From Octopus vulgaris (lineage: Eukaryota), in the NCBI GenBank assembly GCA_951406725.2, contig OX597815.1:141298001-141362000 (forward strand): DNA of 64,000 nucleotides, read 5' to 3'. Below the pieces are notes generated by a model. It was given only the letters and a program-made list of their open reading frames with translations. It did no database searches and was not told the origin of the DNA. Of this stretch, positions 4,322 to 59,623 are shown in pieces (position 1 is the stretch's first letter; each line of letters begins with the position of its first letter). Both the position numbers and the translations under genes were made by a program.

Positions 4322-6660
4322 TGGGATTTTAAAAAAATACAAAAGACGAACACACGTTGTAAACAACAAATAGGTGTATTAGTTTAATGCTCAGGAAGGT
4401 GAGAAAGTCTATTCCGCTTCGCGCCTACGCTCATCAACCGAAAGGAAAGCGAGAAAATAAACAGAAAGAAAATAAAAAAAAAAAAAACTTTAGTGGCTAG
4501 CTTTCAATTTTGGCGATGGCCGGACAGAGGTGGTGAGTCAGGAGAGCTTGGAAGAAGAGGAGATAATAAAATAGTGGTGATCCCAAAACGAAGGTGCGCG
4601 TACGTATGTATGTGAGAGCGTGTGTGTGCGTGTGGATATGGCTGGTGACCTTCACGTGAGGGTGTGCGCATGCATAGGTGTGTGGATGATGGTGTGGTCA
4701 GTGCTAGTGTATGCGGGGTAGTGAAGTGTGGTGGCGTGGTGTGGTGTGGTGATATGTGATATGTTGTGATCTGTTGTGGTGGTGTGTGGTGTTTGGTGGT
4801 GTTGGTGTGGTGTAGCGGTGTGTAGTGTGCTAGTGTTCGGGTGTAAGGGATGCCAGAGCGATTCAGGGTGGGGTGTTGGTGTAGGTGTAGGATATATGGG
4901 AGTGGAATGTGTAGGGGTTGATTTGGTATGGGATGTATACGAATGGTTGGGTTGGGATGTGTGGGAGTGGGGTAACGATAGAAGGGGCGACGATGAAGGG
5001 AGGGGGAGAGTAGGAGTGAAGAGAAGTAGAAGTAAGGGAGGAGAGGAGAGGAAAGGTGGGTGGGAGTGAAGAAAGGAAATAGTTGTGAGAGGGGGGTGGA
5101 GAGAGGAAGGGAGGAAGTCGAGAACATGTGGAGCGAAGGAGCGAACAGGAGAGATTAATTCCTGATGGCCCCTGTGCAAGGACAAACCGAACAGAGACAG
5201 GTGTTGTAAAGAATGATCGGAAGTGGCGCGAGACCTGGGTGTTGTTGCTGAGTCTGATGTAACGGAGATGTTCCGCGAACCGATCAGCAAAGCGGCGTCC
5301 CGTTTAACCGATGTGCAGAGGACAGTGAGAGCAGGAGATGCAGTAAATGACGTTGCTAGAAGTGCAGGTGAAGGAGTCAGTGATATGATAGTATTGATGA
5401 TGGGTGCCTGTGAGAATGGTGGTGCTGGAGAGGTAGGGGCAAGTGCGGCAGCATGAGAAGGAGCAGCGGCACGAGCCGGGGTTAGAGATGGGGTTAGTGA
5501 AGAAATTGTGGACCAGGAGGTCACGTAGGTTGTGGGCTCATTTGAAGGAGTATGGGTAGGTTAGGGAAGATTTTCGAAGTAGAGGGGTCGGACTGGAGTC
5601 GCCGAAAAGCTTGGAGAGTAGTGCGTTGGAGAGCTTTGGTGGAGGGGTGGTAGGTGATGGGAGATGGGAAACAGGGGACGGCGGGGCGTGCCGCGGAGAG
5701 AGAACATATGCATGGTCTACGGAACGTTCTCTGGCAAGGGCGGTGTGGATAGTGTTGAGGGGATGAATGTTGAAGTGGGGAGCCATGAGTTGGGACTGAG
5801 TCTCAAAGTCACGGTTGTCACTGCAGAGCTTGCGAACACGGAGGAATTGGTATTAGGGGATGGAGAGCTTGGTGTGTTTAGTGTGGGAGTAGGAGAAGTT
5901 GAGGTCTGAGTGTGAGTCATTGTGTTTGTAGTAGATGGAGGCGGTGAGAATGGAGTGATGAATGCTGACCGAAATGTCGAGAAAGGCGACGAAAGTGTTG
6001 AAAATAGTACAGGAGAATTCGAGGGCACGATGGAAAGATTTGAGAAAAGATACGAAGAAGTATTGTTATTCGTGGTAGAGCGAGATCTCACCGATACAGT
6101 CGTCAGTATAACGACCGTATAGTTCGGGAGTAGGACCAGTGACTCTTGAGAATATTTGGGCTTGAATGTGGCCAACGAACATAGTTGGGTCCCATTCTCG
6201 TTCCCTTGGCCTCTCCCGAGAACATGTTGGTTAAAAATCACCCGTAAACAAGAAGCAGTTAAGGGAGAGAACAAGTTCAGCTAGATGAAGATATGTGGAT
6301 GTGTCAGGTTAGGAGTTAGGTCGAAATTCAAGGTAGTATTTGAGAGCAAGAAGCCATTCGTGGTATGGGATCACCGTGTATACGCTCTTGGTATAAAGAT
6401 TGGAGAGAAGTTTAGAGGGGCCAGAAGCGAAAGAGAAAGAGTTGAAGAAACGAAGAGCATGGCTAGTGTCATGGATGTGAAAAGGGAGTGAAGCCACTAT
6501 GGGCACAAAGACACGGTCAAGATATGCGGAGCAGTTGCAGGTGGAGATGATGAGGCGGCCAGGGTTGTTAGGTTTGTGGATTTGGAGGAGTAATAAATTG
6601 TAGGGATGCGAGGGGTGCGGGCAATGAAACTGGAGGCGGGGGGAGAAAGGAGGTTGGGAT
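4322..6660 (-). mobile_element. Decayed Penelope-like element (RT + GIY-YIG endonuclease + 3' pLTR), flanked by (TA)n on both sides
   Basis: Minus-strand peptides IHKPNNPGRLIISTCNC, PIVASLPFHIHDTSHAL..KSVYTVIPYHE, GTRMGPNY (PLE RT) and FTCTSSNVIYCISCSHCPLHIG*TGRRFADRFAEH (GIY-YIG, about 5270-5390); many disruptions. Confidence 0.9.
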
Positions 6661-16924: not shown

Positions 16925-17306
16925 ATAAGTAAGGAAAATTTTTAAAAATGCAGAATGCTCAAATGAAAGAAAATTTTGATAAAATGAGAAATTGATAAAA
17001 TATATAAATATATATTTATTCAACCGGTTTTCGTCATTGTATGACTTCATTTTTATCATTATTCTTTTGCAAAAAACAATGCAATTTTCTTTTTCCCCTT
17101 TCTAATTTAAAAAAAACTTTTAAAACATAAATATTCTTGACAAGTCATACAATGACGAAAACCGTTGAATAAATATATATTTATATATTTTATCAATTTC
17201 TCATTTATTAAAATTTTCTTTCATTTGAGCATTCTGCATTTTAAAAGATTTTTCCTTACTTATCATTTCTCCACGTGCGTCAACACAACCCCACCATTTA
17301 TTGATC
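16925..17306 (+). mobile_element. (TA)n-embedded fold-back element with ~123-bp inverted arms, a hammerhead-like motif and a 3' tail (probable Penelope-type pLTR derivative)
   Basis: Arms 16925-17047 and 17142-17263 are reverse complements; TATTC-TTGACAA-GTCATACAATGAC-GAAA-ACCG-TT-GAATA at about 17132-17171. Confidence 0.7.
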
Positions 17307-17338
<32 letters not shown>

Positions 17339-32193: not shown

Positions 32194-32624
32194 TATACAT
32201 TATCTATATTATTATATGATTGAATGTCACATATCCTCTGCCAAGTAAAATTAATATATATATATATATATTATTCAAAGAAATTCCAACTCTGTTTTTT
32301 TTTTTATTTATTCATATTCTTTTTAATATTAATGTATAACATAGAATATATAGTATAAATAATATACATAGTAAAATGAAATGAAGTATTGCTTGTCTTA
32401 TTGAATAGATGAGATATTGAATATAAAATGCTAAATATTAATGGACTATTATACTTTTTTGCATAAATGCAGTCTTCAAGGTCCCAGGTTGTGGCAGGAG
32501 TGTTTCAAATGTGAAACACTCCTGTCACACGCATTTATAAAGAATATAAATAAAGCATAAAAAAAAACAGTCTTGGAATTTCTTTGAATAATATATATCC
32601 CTCTATACACAATCATACAAACCC

Positions 32625-54635: not shown

Positions 54636-56332
54636 ATAATATGTATATTGCAAGACTGAACGTATAAGTAATAGGTCCGCTTGAAAGGCAGTAATGGTTC
54701 AAAATTTCTCCACTGTATACGGTTTTAACTATCATGAAATTGGATATGGTGTCACTTGCTTCTCAAACAATGATTTTCAACTACACAAATGATTGTTTAC
54801 TTATACAGAACACTAATATGAAATAAGTGTGAAATGCTAAATAATCTAGTGAAATATATGATAAAATCTTAGAAGCAAATTCAATAGAATTACTGGTTCT
54901 GAAATTAAAGGGGCAACAAAAGGCTTCCATAAGAAATATACTCACTACTTTTTACTGTACTATACATAGTTGCTAAAAAAACACACGCTCGCAGGATTAA
55001 TTATTTTTTAGAGAAAAGCAATAATTATCTGGTTGAAAACAGTGTATGTTCCATTGGTTCATTAATGAGCTGACTCAATTACAAAGCTAGAAATATCTAA
55101 ACAAATAATATAAAAAAAAACATTTTAAATCTGTGTCTGAGTATGACCTTAATGGATTTAGAGAATGTATTTGATAATCTTTCCAGCACTGACTGTTCTT
55201 TTAATTAACCTCTTGCGTAAACTATTCTCAATAATTTGTTTGTCATGAATAACTTGTTTATGTTGAATGCTCTTGCACATAAGTTTTCTGGATTAACAAG
55301 CTAGGGTGAATTTGAGTTTATAGAGAGATATACTAAAATAACTCAGCTGCTAGACAGGAAATATTACTAACAAGAAATAATGTAAAAAATGGTACAGCAG
55401 GCAATGCACTCGGTTCCACATTATTGCAAGATAATCTAGCACACGGTATTTTCTCAGCGGTTTACAACCTTTTAGAAGTAAGAGCCCAATTTCGTCTCAT
55501 AGCCCATTTAAAAGTTTTCAAAATAAAGACGGGTTCCAAAAAGAACAGTTATTCATTTTGTTAGCATAAATAGATAGTCTTTAATCATAATCTAACAGGA
55601 GAAACATTAATAAGGACAGAGGAACGAAATCTTTGCATATATACATAAAATGAGAGAAAAAGAGACAAGGGAGACAAAGAGAGACAAAGGGAAATATTAA
55701 GTGACGGAGAGAAGGAGAGGGCAAACACAGAAACACATATTTACGCATGAAATGAAGGTATTTTTTGAGTTGAAGATATATAACTACATTGTTATGTCGA
55801 CAATGTATAATCCCAATACCTCCGAAATATTTACACATTCTAACGCCCTCTACTATTTCACGATGTTACGTGTATGAATGTATGTATGTATGTATGTATG
55901 TATGTATGTATGTATGTATGTATGTGCGTAAGTATGTATGTATGCGCGTATGTATGTATGGATGTATTTATGTATTATGTATGTATGCATGTATGTACGC
56001 ACGTATGATCGAATGTACGTACGTATGCATGCCTGTATGTGTGTGCTTTTGTGTATGTATATATACATATAGTCTTACTCTCTTTTTACTCTTTTACTTG
56101 TTTCAGTCATTTGGCTGCGGCCATGTTGGAGCACCGCCTTTAATCGGGCAAATCGACTCCGGGACTCATTTTTTGAAAGCCTAGTACTTATTCTATCAGT
56201 CTCTCTTTTGCCGAACCGCTAAGTTACGGGGGACGTAAACACACCAGCATCGGTTGTCAAGCGATGTTGGAGGGACAAACACAGACACACAAACATATAC
56301 ACACACATACGTATATATACATATATATATAT

Positions 56333-56687
56333 ATAGAATGGTTGTATACTGTCACTGAATATAGATATATACAATTGCGAAGACAAGACAAATATCACCA
56401 GCTGACCGGTGTCTGCTACTCTAGGCCGATGGAGGACAACGATCCTGAAACACGTGTCCCTAGATGCAGCTTCGGCAGCCGGGGGTGTTTGTCTCCTCTT
56501 CGTAAATGTATATAAGGACACAGGGAAAAATGTGTCAAAGCCATCAGGAGGCGTTCGATGCTTCCTAGGGCTATACAGCGGTGGTGTACCCCCTACTGTC
56601 ACGTTCTTGTTAGATTGACAGTATACAACCATTTTATCGTACCACCACCGTACATGTCTCTACGAGAGATTTAGAAATTCAATATTT

Positions 56688-56690
<3 letters not shown>
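56333..56690 (+). mobile_element. Nested (TA)n-embedded non-coding element with 22-bp inverted arms, a hammerhead motif and a 53-nt tail
   Basis: Arms 56333-56354 and 56616-56637; tail 56638-56690 similar to 59572-59623. Confidence 0.8.
56420..56464 (+). ncRNA. Minimal type I hammerhead ribozyme-like motif (variant core)
   Basis: TCTAGG-CCGATGG-AGGA(CAACGA)TCCT-GAAA-CACGTG-TC-CCTAGA: 6-bp stem I, 4-bp stem II, palindromic stem III, GUC cleavage triplet; core differs from CUGANGA at two positions. Confidence 0.72.
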
Positions 56691-56731
<41 letters not shown>

Positions 56732-56939
56732 TACATATATACGACAGGCTTCTTTCAGTTTGCGTCTACCAAATCCACTCACAAGGCTTTGGTCGGCCCG
56801 AGGCTAAAGTAGAAGACACTTGCCCAAGGTGCCACGCGGTGGGACTGAACCCGGAACCATGTGGTTGGTAAACAAACTACTTACCACACAGCCACTCCTG
56901 ATACATAAATTTATATATACATATATATCTGTACATATA

Positions 56940-56991
<52 letters not shown>

Positions 56992-57194
56992 CATACATAT
57001 ATACATACATATATATATATACATGTATACATATATTCATACATGCACGCGCGCACGCACACACACACATATCCATACAGATAAACATATCTGGACTTGG
57101 ATGTGTGGCGGCGTTCAATGAAATATTAACATAAAAAATATATATGCATGCATATATGTGCATATATATATATATATATACATGCATATATAAC

Positions 57195-57238
<44 letters not shown>

Positions 57239-57837
57239 ATATATATATATACATACCTGCCTATATATTTATATATGTATATATATATATATATATAAAA
57301 ACATACGTACAAAAATGTGTGTGTGTGCGCGTATCGACTACACACATACACACTTATACATAGGGGAATAGAAAAATTGAGAAATAGGAAGAGAAAGAGA
57401 GAGATGGAGAGAGAGAGCTTTTGATAGACGACAAATAATAAGGGAGGATTCCTTATACTTCTATTAACTCATTAGCAATCAAATAATTCCCTAGGTCGTT
57501 AATGATCCTTATGATCTAAAATGAACATCGGGGGGAGTCGTTTAGATAAAAAGGATTGTATCATTATAACGGTATTTTACAACGGAAATTCTTTATAGAT
57601 TTACAATTAAGCTCACATCAGCTTTCAACAAAGCTTCATGAAAACATCAAAGTCTCTCAAATTTTTGTTCGTTGAAGATAATACGCCCATATTTGACTTG
57701 AAAGATAAGATATAAAGACGAATGATAAAATACACCACATTTATATTAAGTAAAGTTTGTACAGCATTATTCAGCGCCTATGTATATCTATGTATGTATA
57801 TGTGTGTATGTGTATTAACACATGCATACATACAAAA

Positions 57838-57886
<49 letters not shown>

Positions 57887-57932
57887 GTACTTGTTTCAGT
57901 TATTTGACTGCGGCCATGCTGGAGCACCGCCT

Positions 57933-58091
57933 TTTAGAGTGGTGAAAGAGTACAGCAGGGATATCCCCTGCCGGAGCCTCGTGGAGCTTTTAGGTGTTTT
58001 CGCTCAATAAACACACACAACGCCCGGTCTGGGAATCGAAACCGCGATCCTCCGACCGCAAGTCCGCTGCCCTAACCACTGGGCCATTGCC
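57933..58091 (-). mobile_element. tRNA-derived SINE (family C), adjacent to a family B 3' fragment at 57885-57932
   Basis: Minus strand ggcaatggcccagtggttagggc...ggtttcgattccc (A/B boxes) followed by a non-tRNA body. Confidence 0.87.
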
Positions 58092-58112
58092 ATATATATA
58101 TATATATGGGCC

Positions 58113-58147
<35 letters not shown>

Positions 58148-58315
58148 CATGAATACATACATACATGTATATACATACATACATATATATATATATATAT
58201 CAATATATATAATGAGAGAGAGAGAGAGAGTCGACAATATTAAAAAACAAACAATGCGCGTGTGCGAAATAAAAATGGCGACAATTTACCCATCGCACCT
58301 TGTAAATGTACATAC

Positions 58316-58376
<61 letters not shown>

Positions 58377-58380
<4 letters not shown>

Positions 58381-58585
58381 ATCCAAACAAGAAAGCACAA
58401 AAAAACACGTCAACGCGAGGACGTGGAACAAATATAGTATTTTTGGAAGCTCAGGAAAGAAGGAAAGAAGGAGGGTTTAGCGTTTCGATCGGAGCTCTCG
58501 TCGGAAATATAGAAGAAGGAAAGATCCATAGAAGGGAAGACGGAGGAAAAAAATCGCCAACGGTACACACGCAGTCACATTTTGA

Positions 58586-58590
<5 letters not shown>
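58377..58590 (-). mobile_element. Solo Penelope pLTR-like element with a hammerhead-like motif, in (TA)n
   Basis: Minus strand ATTT-CCGACGA-GAGCTCCGATC-GAAACG-CT-AAAC at 58475-58508; gctcaggaa motif and layout similar to 4322-4450 and 17343-17470. Confidence 0.7.
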
Positions 58591-58630
<40 letters not shown>

Positions 58631-58728
58631 CATGTTATGCACTATATCGATGCGTATCCCCCTTCTACACAATATAATAATGTATGGAAGTGTATCTATA
58701 TTTTTTGTATAACGTAAGATATAACAAT

Positions 58729-58940
58729 CCTTTCTACTATAGGCGCAATGCCTAACAATTTGTAAGAGGTGTGGCTATGTGATAAAATTTTTATCCAGTT
58801 CTCAACTGGTATTTATTTCATCGGTCTTGAAAGGATGAGAGGTAAAGTGAACTTCAATAGAATGTTGAACTCACAACTCATAGCTGGAAGAAATGCTGCT
58901 AAGTATTTGCTCGCTGCGATCAGAACGACTCTGGCACATT
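58729..58940 (-). mobile_element. Diverged SINE (family A)
   Basis: cctttctactataggc, ctcaactggta, gaaaggatgagaggtaaagtgaac, ttgaactca. Confidence 0.75.
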
Positions 58941-59260
58941 GATGCAATAATCGAATGATTAGGATAGGAATAAATGAATTCGCTAACCAAATGACAGTCG
59001 ATTGCTACGGAGTGACACCATAGATGAGCTCTTGACATACAACAGAGGTTAATGTTATTTATTCTGGCAAACAAAGTGCTGAAAATATTAAGCCTATGCA
59101 GGAAGCAAATGTATACATATCAGTGATAATCTATTTTTCATTATATCGTGTCTCTATGCGTCAGAGCAAAGTCATTTATGCGAAATGTTTATTGTAGATT
59201 TTTAAATAAATATGCCAATCACAAATTTGTTATATTGTTTGTGTATGTATGTATATATAT

Positions 59261-59622
59261 ATATTAATAGTTATCGCCAAGCTAATATGGTAGTCCATAA
59301 ATATAAGACTAAAGCTACCGTTGATTAGCTCCAAGAGGCCATCGCCTCTAGCTAGCTATATGACACACGAACCTGTGTCCATTATAACCTTCGAACAGGG
59401 GAGGTCAGCCGATTTCCCTTGCTGGTCAGACATCTGTTCGAAGGTTCTAATGGACACAGGTTCGTGTGTCATATAACTAGCTAGAGGTGATGGCCTCTTG
59501 GAGCTAATCAACGGCAGCTTTAGTCTTATATTTATGGACTACCATATTAGCTTGGCGATAACTATTAATATCCAGTACCGCTGCCGTAGTCTCCTTTAAA
59601 GAGACTTAGAAATTTTAATATT

Positions 59623-59623
<1 letters not shown>
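59261..59623 (+). mobile_element. (TA)n-embedded fold-back element: 138-bp inverted arms, 35-bp spacer, 52-nt tail
   Basis: 59261-59398 is the reverse complement of 59434-59571 with 4 mismatches; tail and internal hairpins resemble those of 56333-56690. Confidence 0.88.

Follow-up and report, generated by a model that had tools for sequence, protein, structure and literature searches.

Two sister families of hammerhead-motif non-LTR retrozymes in Octopus vulgaris, probably integrated by a Penelope-like protein

The window, a stretch of 64,000 nt from Octopus vulgaris (contig OX597815.1), contains three fold-back repeats, A, B and C, each of which is flanked by (TA)n runs on either side. Repeat A consists of a short inverted arm (56333..56354, minus strand; positions 291-312 of the monomer described below), whose outer end abuts (TA)n at a fixed internal 3' end ('site 2'), and a 5'-truncated direct copy (56352..56690, plus strand; monomer 27-363), which ends at a terminal fixed 3' end ('site 1') and is likewise joined to (TA)n; the target run on the right side is located at 56690..56741. 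The segment of about 51 nt between site 2 and site 1 (56638..56690, plus strand) is referred to as the tail. A type-I hammerhead motif is found in the direct copy (56420..56464, plus strand), with the stem I TCTAGG/CCTAGA, the stem II AGGA/TCCT, a short palindromic stem III and a predicted GUC cut. Repeat B is composed of an inverted arm (59261..59436, minus strand; monomer 133-308) with its outer end at site 2, and a direct copy (59434..59623, plus strand; monomer 171-360) with a 53-nt tail (59572-59623) ending in (TA)n. In repeat C, the outer end of the inverted arm (16925..17047, minus strand) lies 45 nt inside the tail end and is joined to (TA)n, and the direct piece (17048..17308, plus strand) represents the last 260 nt (3' UTR and tail) of a coding Neptune-type Penelope-like element (PLE).

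The order (TA)n, inverted copy, body, tail, (TA)n, which the initial annotation had claimed for A and B, is present in both. The arms pair between 56333-56354 and 56616-56637 in A (21/22), between 59261-59398 and 59434-59571 in B (138 nt, 97%) and between 16925-17047 and 17142-17263 in C. Thus, the arm lengths of 22 and 138 nt given before are correct as pairings; the inverted piece of B in fact measures 176 nt (59261-59436), and its supposed 35-nt loop is further inverted monomer. The alignment of the A and B tails is beyond chance, as claimed: its score was reached by 0/5000 shuffles and, among 18,270 window positions, at A and B alone. The likeness had been seen in the tails only; the homology spans the whole monomer. 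Comparison of the C tail with the A and B tails gave no significant match (1029/5000 shuffles reach the score).

A and B each derive, as truncated insertions, from one of two sister families of non-coding head-to-tail monomers of 361-366 nt. The genome (2.8 Gb, 227 contigs) was searched with A and B; 2247 (A) and 2599 (B) first-look candidates, which are not copy numbers, were obtained and 40 of each were scored. Cut from tail to tail, the monomers measure 362-366 nt in A (20 units) and 361-362 nt in B (3 units); their GC content is 0.42-0.45. The longest stop-to-stop frame is ≤ 120 aa in A and ≤ 69 aa in B, and none exceeds 120 aa even when the monomer is circularised. Circular folding gave z-scores of -7.1 to -9.2 against 40 shuffles in 4/4 monomers folded. 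The two monomers are colinear with 237/363 identical positions, a value matched by 0/1000 shuffles, and still by 0/1000 with the tail and the ribozyme removed. A unit-junction pattern showed the tail reading directly into the next monomer 147 times in the genome, with at most about 3 units per insertion in the loci seen. Arms within one insertion differ by 2.0% (A) and 5.7% (B), tandem units by 2.1% and 4.6%, and copies from different insertions by 6.1% and 11.1%, respectively. Contigs from four sequencing runs, which we guess to be RNA, cover the monomer with no unit-to-unit joint; such contigs cannot show ends, strand or level and are given no weight here.

In both families there are two fixed 3' ends, separated by about 51-53 nt. 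The internal end lies 50-52 nt from the tail end in 16/21 cases for A and exactly 53 nt from it in 20/35 cases for B (50 B loci sampled, 10 duplicates dropped). After the tail end, (TA)4 follows in 25/30 (A) and 20/43 (B) cases, compared to 4.9% of the window 20-mers, which bears out the proposed (TA)n preference. Exact internal-end/TA junctions occur 516 (A) and 110 (B) times in the genome, and exact tail/TA junctions 197 times (A). Among loci selected solely for their internal end, inverted insertions had the tail end at the far side in 18/20 (A) and 10/14 (B). Target duplications of 8-15 nt were detected in 15 of 38 non-microsatellite insertions (7/17 and 8/21), and in 5% and 3% of mismatched-flank controls. 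The inversion is head-to-head and pairs one end of each kind; partial tandems and 5' truncation are present, and the insertions are mostly dispersed and 0.2-3 units long. The variable arm length with a fixed start noted in the window is supported for A and B. One locus (L385) apparently has the internal end on both sides, and one family C locus (L083) has the tail end on both sides. An insertion signature of this type is described for PLEs in PMC8557442 and PMC3846280. In vitro, both strands of AT-rich DNA are cut and extended by a PLE protein, predicted to dimerise, which uses two RT start sites bounding the tail, according to the text of PMC11167929. The PLE-type tail and inversion proposed for A and B are thus borne out by two fixed 3' ends, a one-sided tail, (TA)n targets and duplications.

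According to a descriptor scan and a core census, A and B each have one type-I hammerhead motif per monomer. The core of A is CCGAUGA (U4C) in 82/89 and canonical in 3/89; CCGAUGG, the core of the window copy, is present in 1 of the 89. The B core is of the U3-A8 type in 16/17 cases of the descriptor scan and in 58/65 listed in the census, in which the search window was one base off. The window copy of B is without a hammerhead, its arm stopping 3 nt 3' of the predicted cut. The hammerhead claim hence holds for the families, and less so for the window, where one copy has no motif and the other a changed core. An exact pattern of the A ribozyme has 435 matches in the genome and the reversed control has 0. 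Between A and B, 16/50 helix pairs are changed on both sides (1-5 in slid controls), including three pairs in stem I, further pairs in stem II and the core change from C3-G8 to U3-A8; almost all of these compensatory changes stem from one A/B split and do not represent 16 independent lineages. An Rfam scan of the window and four loci yielded no hammerhead match, only microsatellite-driven miRNA matches. It seems, given the fixed variant cores, that families of this kind escape standard hammerhead descriptors. The U3-A8 core is known in nature (PMC4209133, PMC3088659), in PLE hammerheads among others (PMC4209133), and is active in vitro; U4C considerably lowers in vitro activity, yet it occurs in a viable viroid (PMC3088659).

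Arms stop at the predicted cut, which lies at monomer 133/134 in A and 130/131 in B, no more often than expected (5' stops 4/113 and 2/88, about 3.5 and 2 expected), hence there is no sign that the ribozyme acts. Furthermore, 55 of 136 site-2 arms, i.e. those starting at the internal end, run across the predicted cut site, leaving the idea of ribozyme-cut linear monomers as templates unsupported. From the positions of stops and arms, the template RNA is likely an uncleaved multimer or circle.

Judged by its sequence, C represents a 3' stump left by a coding Neptune-type PLE; it is unrelated in sequence to A and B and of the same geometry. The family protein has RT motifs, a CX4CXXC linker and, at its C-terminus, GIY-YIG with CCHH, and the pLTR forms a partial tandem. 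The RVT_1 match of C is weak (E = 6e-4, below the Pfam cut-off); many of 42 longer homologues carry RVT_1 and GIY-YIG. The assignment to the Neptune-type clade is by motif. In 12/14 inverted pieces of C, the arm terminates 45-51 nt inside the tail end, one of the 12 being located at a locus edge. C had been placed on the same plan as A and B, which is correct for the arm geometry between (TA)n runs and incorrect for the kind of element. It is a plain member of the endonuclease-positive PLEs with inverted pLTR and tail as described in PMC3846280, PMC8557442 and PMC11167929. A minimal hammerhead-like motif at about 17133-17172 was seen by eye only and was missed by the descriptor scan.

Family A is the host of a further element. 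At position 74-82, 5/49 A units break into one common sequence of 1.7 kb, after which the monomer resumes at position 66; both junctions are present at 5 loci. Among the best matches, the fixed A site follows 21/25 intact guest 3' ends, 18 of which continue into monomer and 3 into another guest copy. The target site is located 30 nt upstream of the A hammerhead and a target duplication is present. A looser junction pattern gave 14 matches, all of the same family, and no second family at this site. All guest copies seen are ORF1-only. ORF1 has weak zinc-knuckle matches and no homologue was found by sequence search. An RT partner (ORF2 with APE and RT) was not found for the guest either, hence placement in the Tx1 clade is not established. 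Guest and monomer might also have been amplified together as a composite. At 17 loci, however, the distances between guest ends show no correlation with those between the host monomers (Mantel p = 0.21), a weak argument against this idea. By analogy, the guest behaves like a Tx1-type element, i.e. a putative ORF1-only non-LTR-like element at one fixed site in family A. It resembles the transposon-targeting elements of the Tx1 clade presented by Kojima 2015 (PMC4494074), namely Tx1L inserting into Tx1D, and Tx1-Mar and SINEU inserting into Mariner-N4, in its fixed site within a repeat, its target duplication and its tandem re-insertion; it differs in that its target is a retrozyme and its gene is ORF1-like only. 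No retroelement targeting a retrozyme was found in the literature searched (retrozymes and Tx1 targeting).

As far as tested, the sequence data indicate that A and B are non-autonomous and protein-free. The DNA upstream of the monomer is monomer or unique flank in 30/30 loci chosen by the ribozyme. In 40 regions around unit junctions, 35/49 units starting at position 1 reach position 300 or beyond; of the 14 units stopping earlier, 5 enter the guest element and none a PLE ORF. PLE-protein matches occur in 7/300 A and B loci (6 sites), with no common junction of monomer and ORF. The PLE ORFs beside A and B copies at L002, L011 and L052/L057 were rejected as partners, having their own 3' ends and being separate insertions; the PLE neighbours at L096, L186 and L248 were set aside on coordinates only. 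The non-autonomy proposed in the initial annotation is supported; the expected extension in 5' direction to an RT/GIY-YIG ORF led to monomer, unique flank or guest and to no PLE ORF. A coding PLE with A or B ends was also not found when a combined A and B profile was run on 58 + 5 PLE loci, where it detected A copies alone. These 63 loci are a small sample of the PLE families of the genome (6136 first-look GIY-YIG candidates). Consequently, the proposed PLE mobilisation of retrozyme-like elements is supported by the footprint on A and B and lacks a coding counterpart in the loci sampled. A and B could instead be pLTRs of rare coding PLEs which are seen as 5'-truncated stumps. C, in the same window, is precisely such a stump, vertebrate retrozymes are described as related to pLTRs (bioRxiv 10.64898/2026.07.22.740005) and the sampling covered part of the PLE diversity of the genome. 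Family C, however, runs into its own ORF in 8/8 long stretches fetched, whereas A and B show no common ORF junction in 300 loci, units reaching position 300 or beyond, no early stop entering a PLE ORF and the tail reading directly into the next monomer; we regard the pLTR explanation as quite improbable. Being short and AT-rich, with inverted ends in TA sites, A and B are also reminiscent of MITE-like DNA transposons or of chance palindromes in microsatellites. As already argued in the initial annotation, the arms are not the terminal inverted repeats (TIRs) of a DNA transposon: their length ranges from about 20 to > 400 nt, they do not lie at the terminus on both sides, fixed-length TIRs are absent and tandem units are present. 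Together with 5' truncation, compensated helices at the RNA level and long target duplications, this practically rules out such an origin.

For the formation of the inversion, 70 A and 66 B loci with an internal end, 136 in all, were analyzed after removal of 4 B rows from the same place. An adjoining inverted tail arm is present in 65 of them and absent in 71. The site-2 arm outreaches the tail-bearing arm in 5' direction by > 10 nt in 40/65 and the reverse is true in 9/65; in about seven loci, where the tail arm extends into another unit, its length was taken to the nearest tail. In the window copy of B (arms 133-308 and 171-360), each arm contains sequence absent from the other. The initial annotation had assumed self-primed fold-back, an idea already in print (Arkhipova 2013, PMC3846280). 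In its pure form, the inverted arm would be made solely by fold-back of one cDNA or antisense RNA after a single target-priming event. This would agree with the correlation of the arm stops (Spearman 0.40 and 0.45), which lie within 40 nt of each other in 26/43 and 11/22 loci (14.8 and 5.4 expected; p = 0.0002 and 0.006), i.e. in 37/65 overall with about 20 expected, as well as with the common junction microhomology of 1-4 nt and with the fact that arms within one A insertion are more alike than copies across insertions. However, inverted arms do not resemble each other more closely than tandem units do (2.0% versus 2.1% difference in A), the length of one unit is exceeded by 14 site-2 arms and the inverted tail is missing beside more than half of the internal ends. 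Since each arm has sequence lacking in the other in 40/65 loci, so that neither can be a copy of the other, plain self-primed fold-back is not the general mechanism, and pure fold-back is considered unlikely. Two priming events are needed, and a better fit than with a single fold-back is obtained with two start sites, used for priming at both target strands. As the stops are correlated, fold-back may still join the centre of inverted insertions; the coupled stops fit either two RTs working on one RNA or two cDNAs joined by a fold-back.

Non-LTR retrozymes are presented by Cervera and De la Pena 2020 (PMC7229834) and Li et al. 2026 (bioRxiv 10.64898/2026.07.22.740005) as non-coding head-to-tail monomers of 150-450 nt (350-390 nt in mussel) with one type-I hammerhead each. 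In both papers, PLEs are proposed as mobilisers based on co-occurrence and sequence relatedness. A and B are similar to these retrozymes in monomer size, hammerhead, GC content < 50%, strong self-pairing, long target duplications (> 4 bp) and co-occurrence with PLEs. They have no coding capacity and, PBS and PPT aside, no LTR organisation. According to the sequence-level definition, A and B are non-LTR retrozymes and hence belong to a known class. Unlike the described members, they have the inversion, two fixed 3' ends, (TA)n targets and dispersed insertions of 0.2-3 units (in the main text of PMC7229834, the words 'inverted' and 'microsatellite' occur 0 times); moreover, both cores are variants missed by Rfam, and A hosts a site-specific guest. 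Whether the family is already described had been left open. The class is known, and the A and B families themselves were not found in the literature searched; prior annotation in Dfam, Repbase or the deposited library or supplements of PMC13282606, the text of which does not contain 'ribozyme', is possible.

With the insertions of endonuclease-positive PLEs, for which duplications of 8-10 bp and two RT start sites bounding the tail are described (Arkhipova 2013, PMC3846280; Craig 2021, PMC8557442; Frangieh 2024, PMC11167929), A and B share 5' truncation, partial tandems, an inverted 5' copy, a tail at one end and the (TA)n bias. They differ from coding PLEs in having no ORF, and the tails of the window families are 45-53 nt long versus the quoted 30-40 nt. 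Closer in organisation are the non-autonomous Chlamys PLEs, e.g. MRC1 (Craig 2021, PMC8557442), which are also non-coding PLE dependants with pLTRs and head-to-tail insertions. However, those are described as generally sharing the 3' end with an identified autonomous family, whereas for A and B no partner was found and a hammerhead motif is present.

Taken together, we consider it probable that A and B are truncated copies of sister 363-nt hammerhead-motif non-LTR retrozymes, likely reverse-transcribed and inserted in trans by a Penelope-like protein that cuts (TA)n, and that C is the stump of a Neptune-type PLE. In the proposed mechanism, a multimeric or circular monomer RNA would be bound by the PLE protein via the conserved tail region, and the PLE endonuclease would nick both strands of AT-rich DNA. 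Site 1 would serve as the start of reverse transcription on one strand and site 2 on the other, and the two cDNAs would stop at variable, partly coupled points and be joined head to head via microhomology, possibly by fold-back of one cDNA. Fixation of one priming event alone would leave a direct-only truncated copy, and read-through past the unit junction would give partial tandems. The correlated arm stops (37/65 within 40 nt) are not predicted by independent twin priming. A more far-reaching and rather speculative version is a three-tier RNA parasite system. Here, circular hammerhead RNAs would be copied into (TA)n by a PLE dimer, with two RTs starting 51-53 nt apart on one RNA and stopping together, and the ORF1-only guest would home to one site just upstream of the ribozyme and use transcription and cleavage of the host unit.

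If true, copying by a PLE dimer would explain the PLE tail and the head-to-head inversion in one mechanism. New are the PLE footprint on hundreds of protein-free ribozyme repeats, which is unusually direct genomic evidence on the mobiliser of retrozymes, the arm statistics favouring two-site priming, the fixed variant cores and the site-specific guest. For the PLE in vitro assay already in existence, a 363-nt RNA whose two 3' ends are mapped lends itself readily as substrate. Beyond A and B, the arm statistics bear on how PLE inversions are formed in general, i.e. by two-site priming or by self-priming.

The genome has a further Neptune-type family besides family C, which is also a coding Neptune-type PLE. 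Its 781-aa frame (L239:3245-5587, L240:3164-5506, both loci from the same genome) encodes RT and GIY-YIG domains and is open in many copies, and at L239 the element is bounded by direct terminal repeats (pLTRs) of 456 nt that are 99% identical. It is a candidate for a recently active PLE. Its members end at (TA)n and carry a U3-A8 hammerhead-like motif, recognised by eye, that is similar to the core of B, one of the two non-coding monomer families; its tail gave no match to the A or B tails. In both Neptune-type families an upstream frame of ~340-360 aa precedes the RT frame (L084:3172-6937, L239:1906-5587), and by eye the two upstream frames look homologous. On the minus strand of the window, 5322-6125 is a decayed remnant of another PLE family, a C-rich one; it shares 27% identity with the protein of family C.

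Within B, two subfamilies repeat one inversion junction, in which the inverted arm extends to monomer position 133 and the direct sequence starts from 171 (L031, L035, L041, L043), whereby these loci were picked with a query itself containing this junction. More divergent subfamilies of A, 86-90% identical, have longer hammerhead stem III variants (L171, L175). Abundant short interspersed repeats, unrelated to A, B and C and possibly SINE-like, lie near the monomer copies in the window (56084-56290, 56744-56900, 57888-58090). A further short inverted repeat (56 nt, 87.5%) at 32272-32590 is flanked by two (TA)n runs.

Family A also hosts a 1.7-kb guest element (L324:735-4183, L364-L367 and L368-L393) with a single ORF1-like ORF of ~460 aa that has a weak zinc knuckle, and with an AATAAA terminus. 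It is inserted at monomer positions 66-82, so that the hammerhead lies 30 nt downstream of the site, and the insertion is apparently accompanied by a duplication of 9-17 nt; this site holds 21 of the 25 intact guest 3' ends. Tandem re-insertions occur, and an RT partner of the guest was sought and none was found. Some arrays mix guest relatives with other ORF1-only elements (L374, L389, L390, L392, L393, L394-L397). One sister family, whose 3' end differs, is followed at three of four loci by another shared sequence, which suggests a group of site-specific ORF1-only elements.
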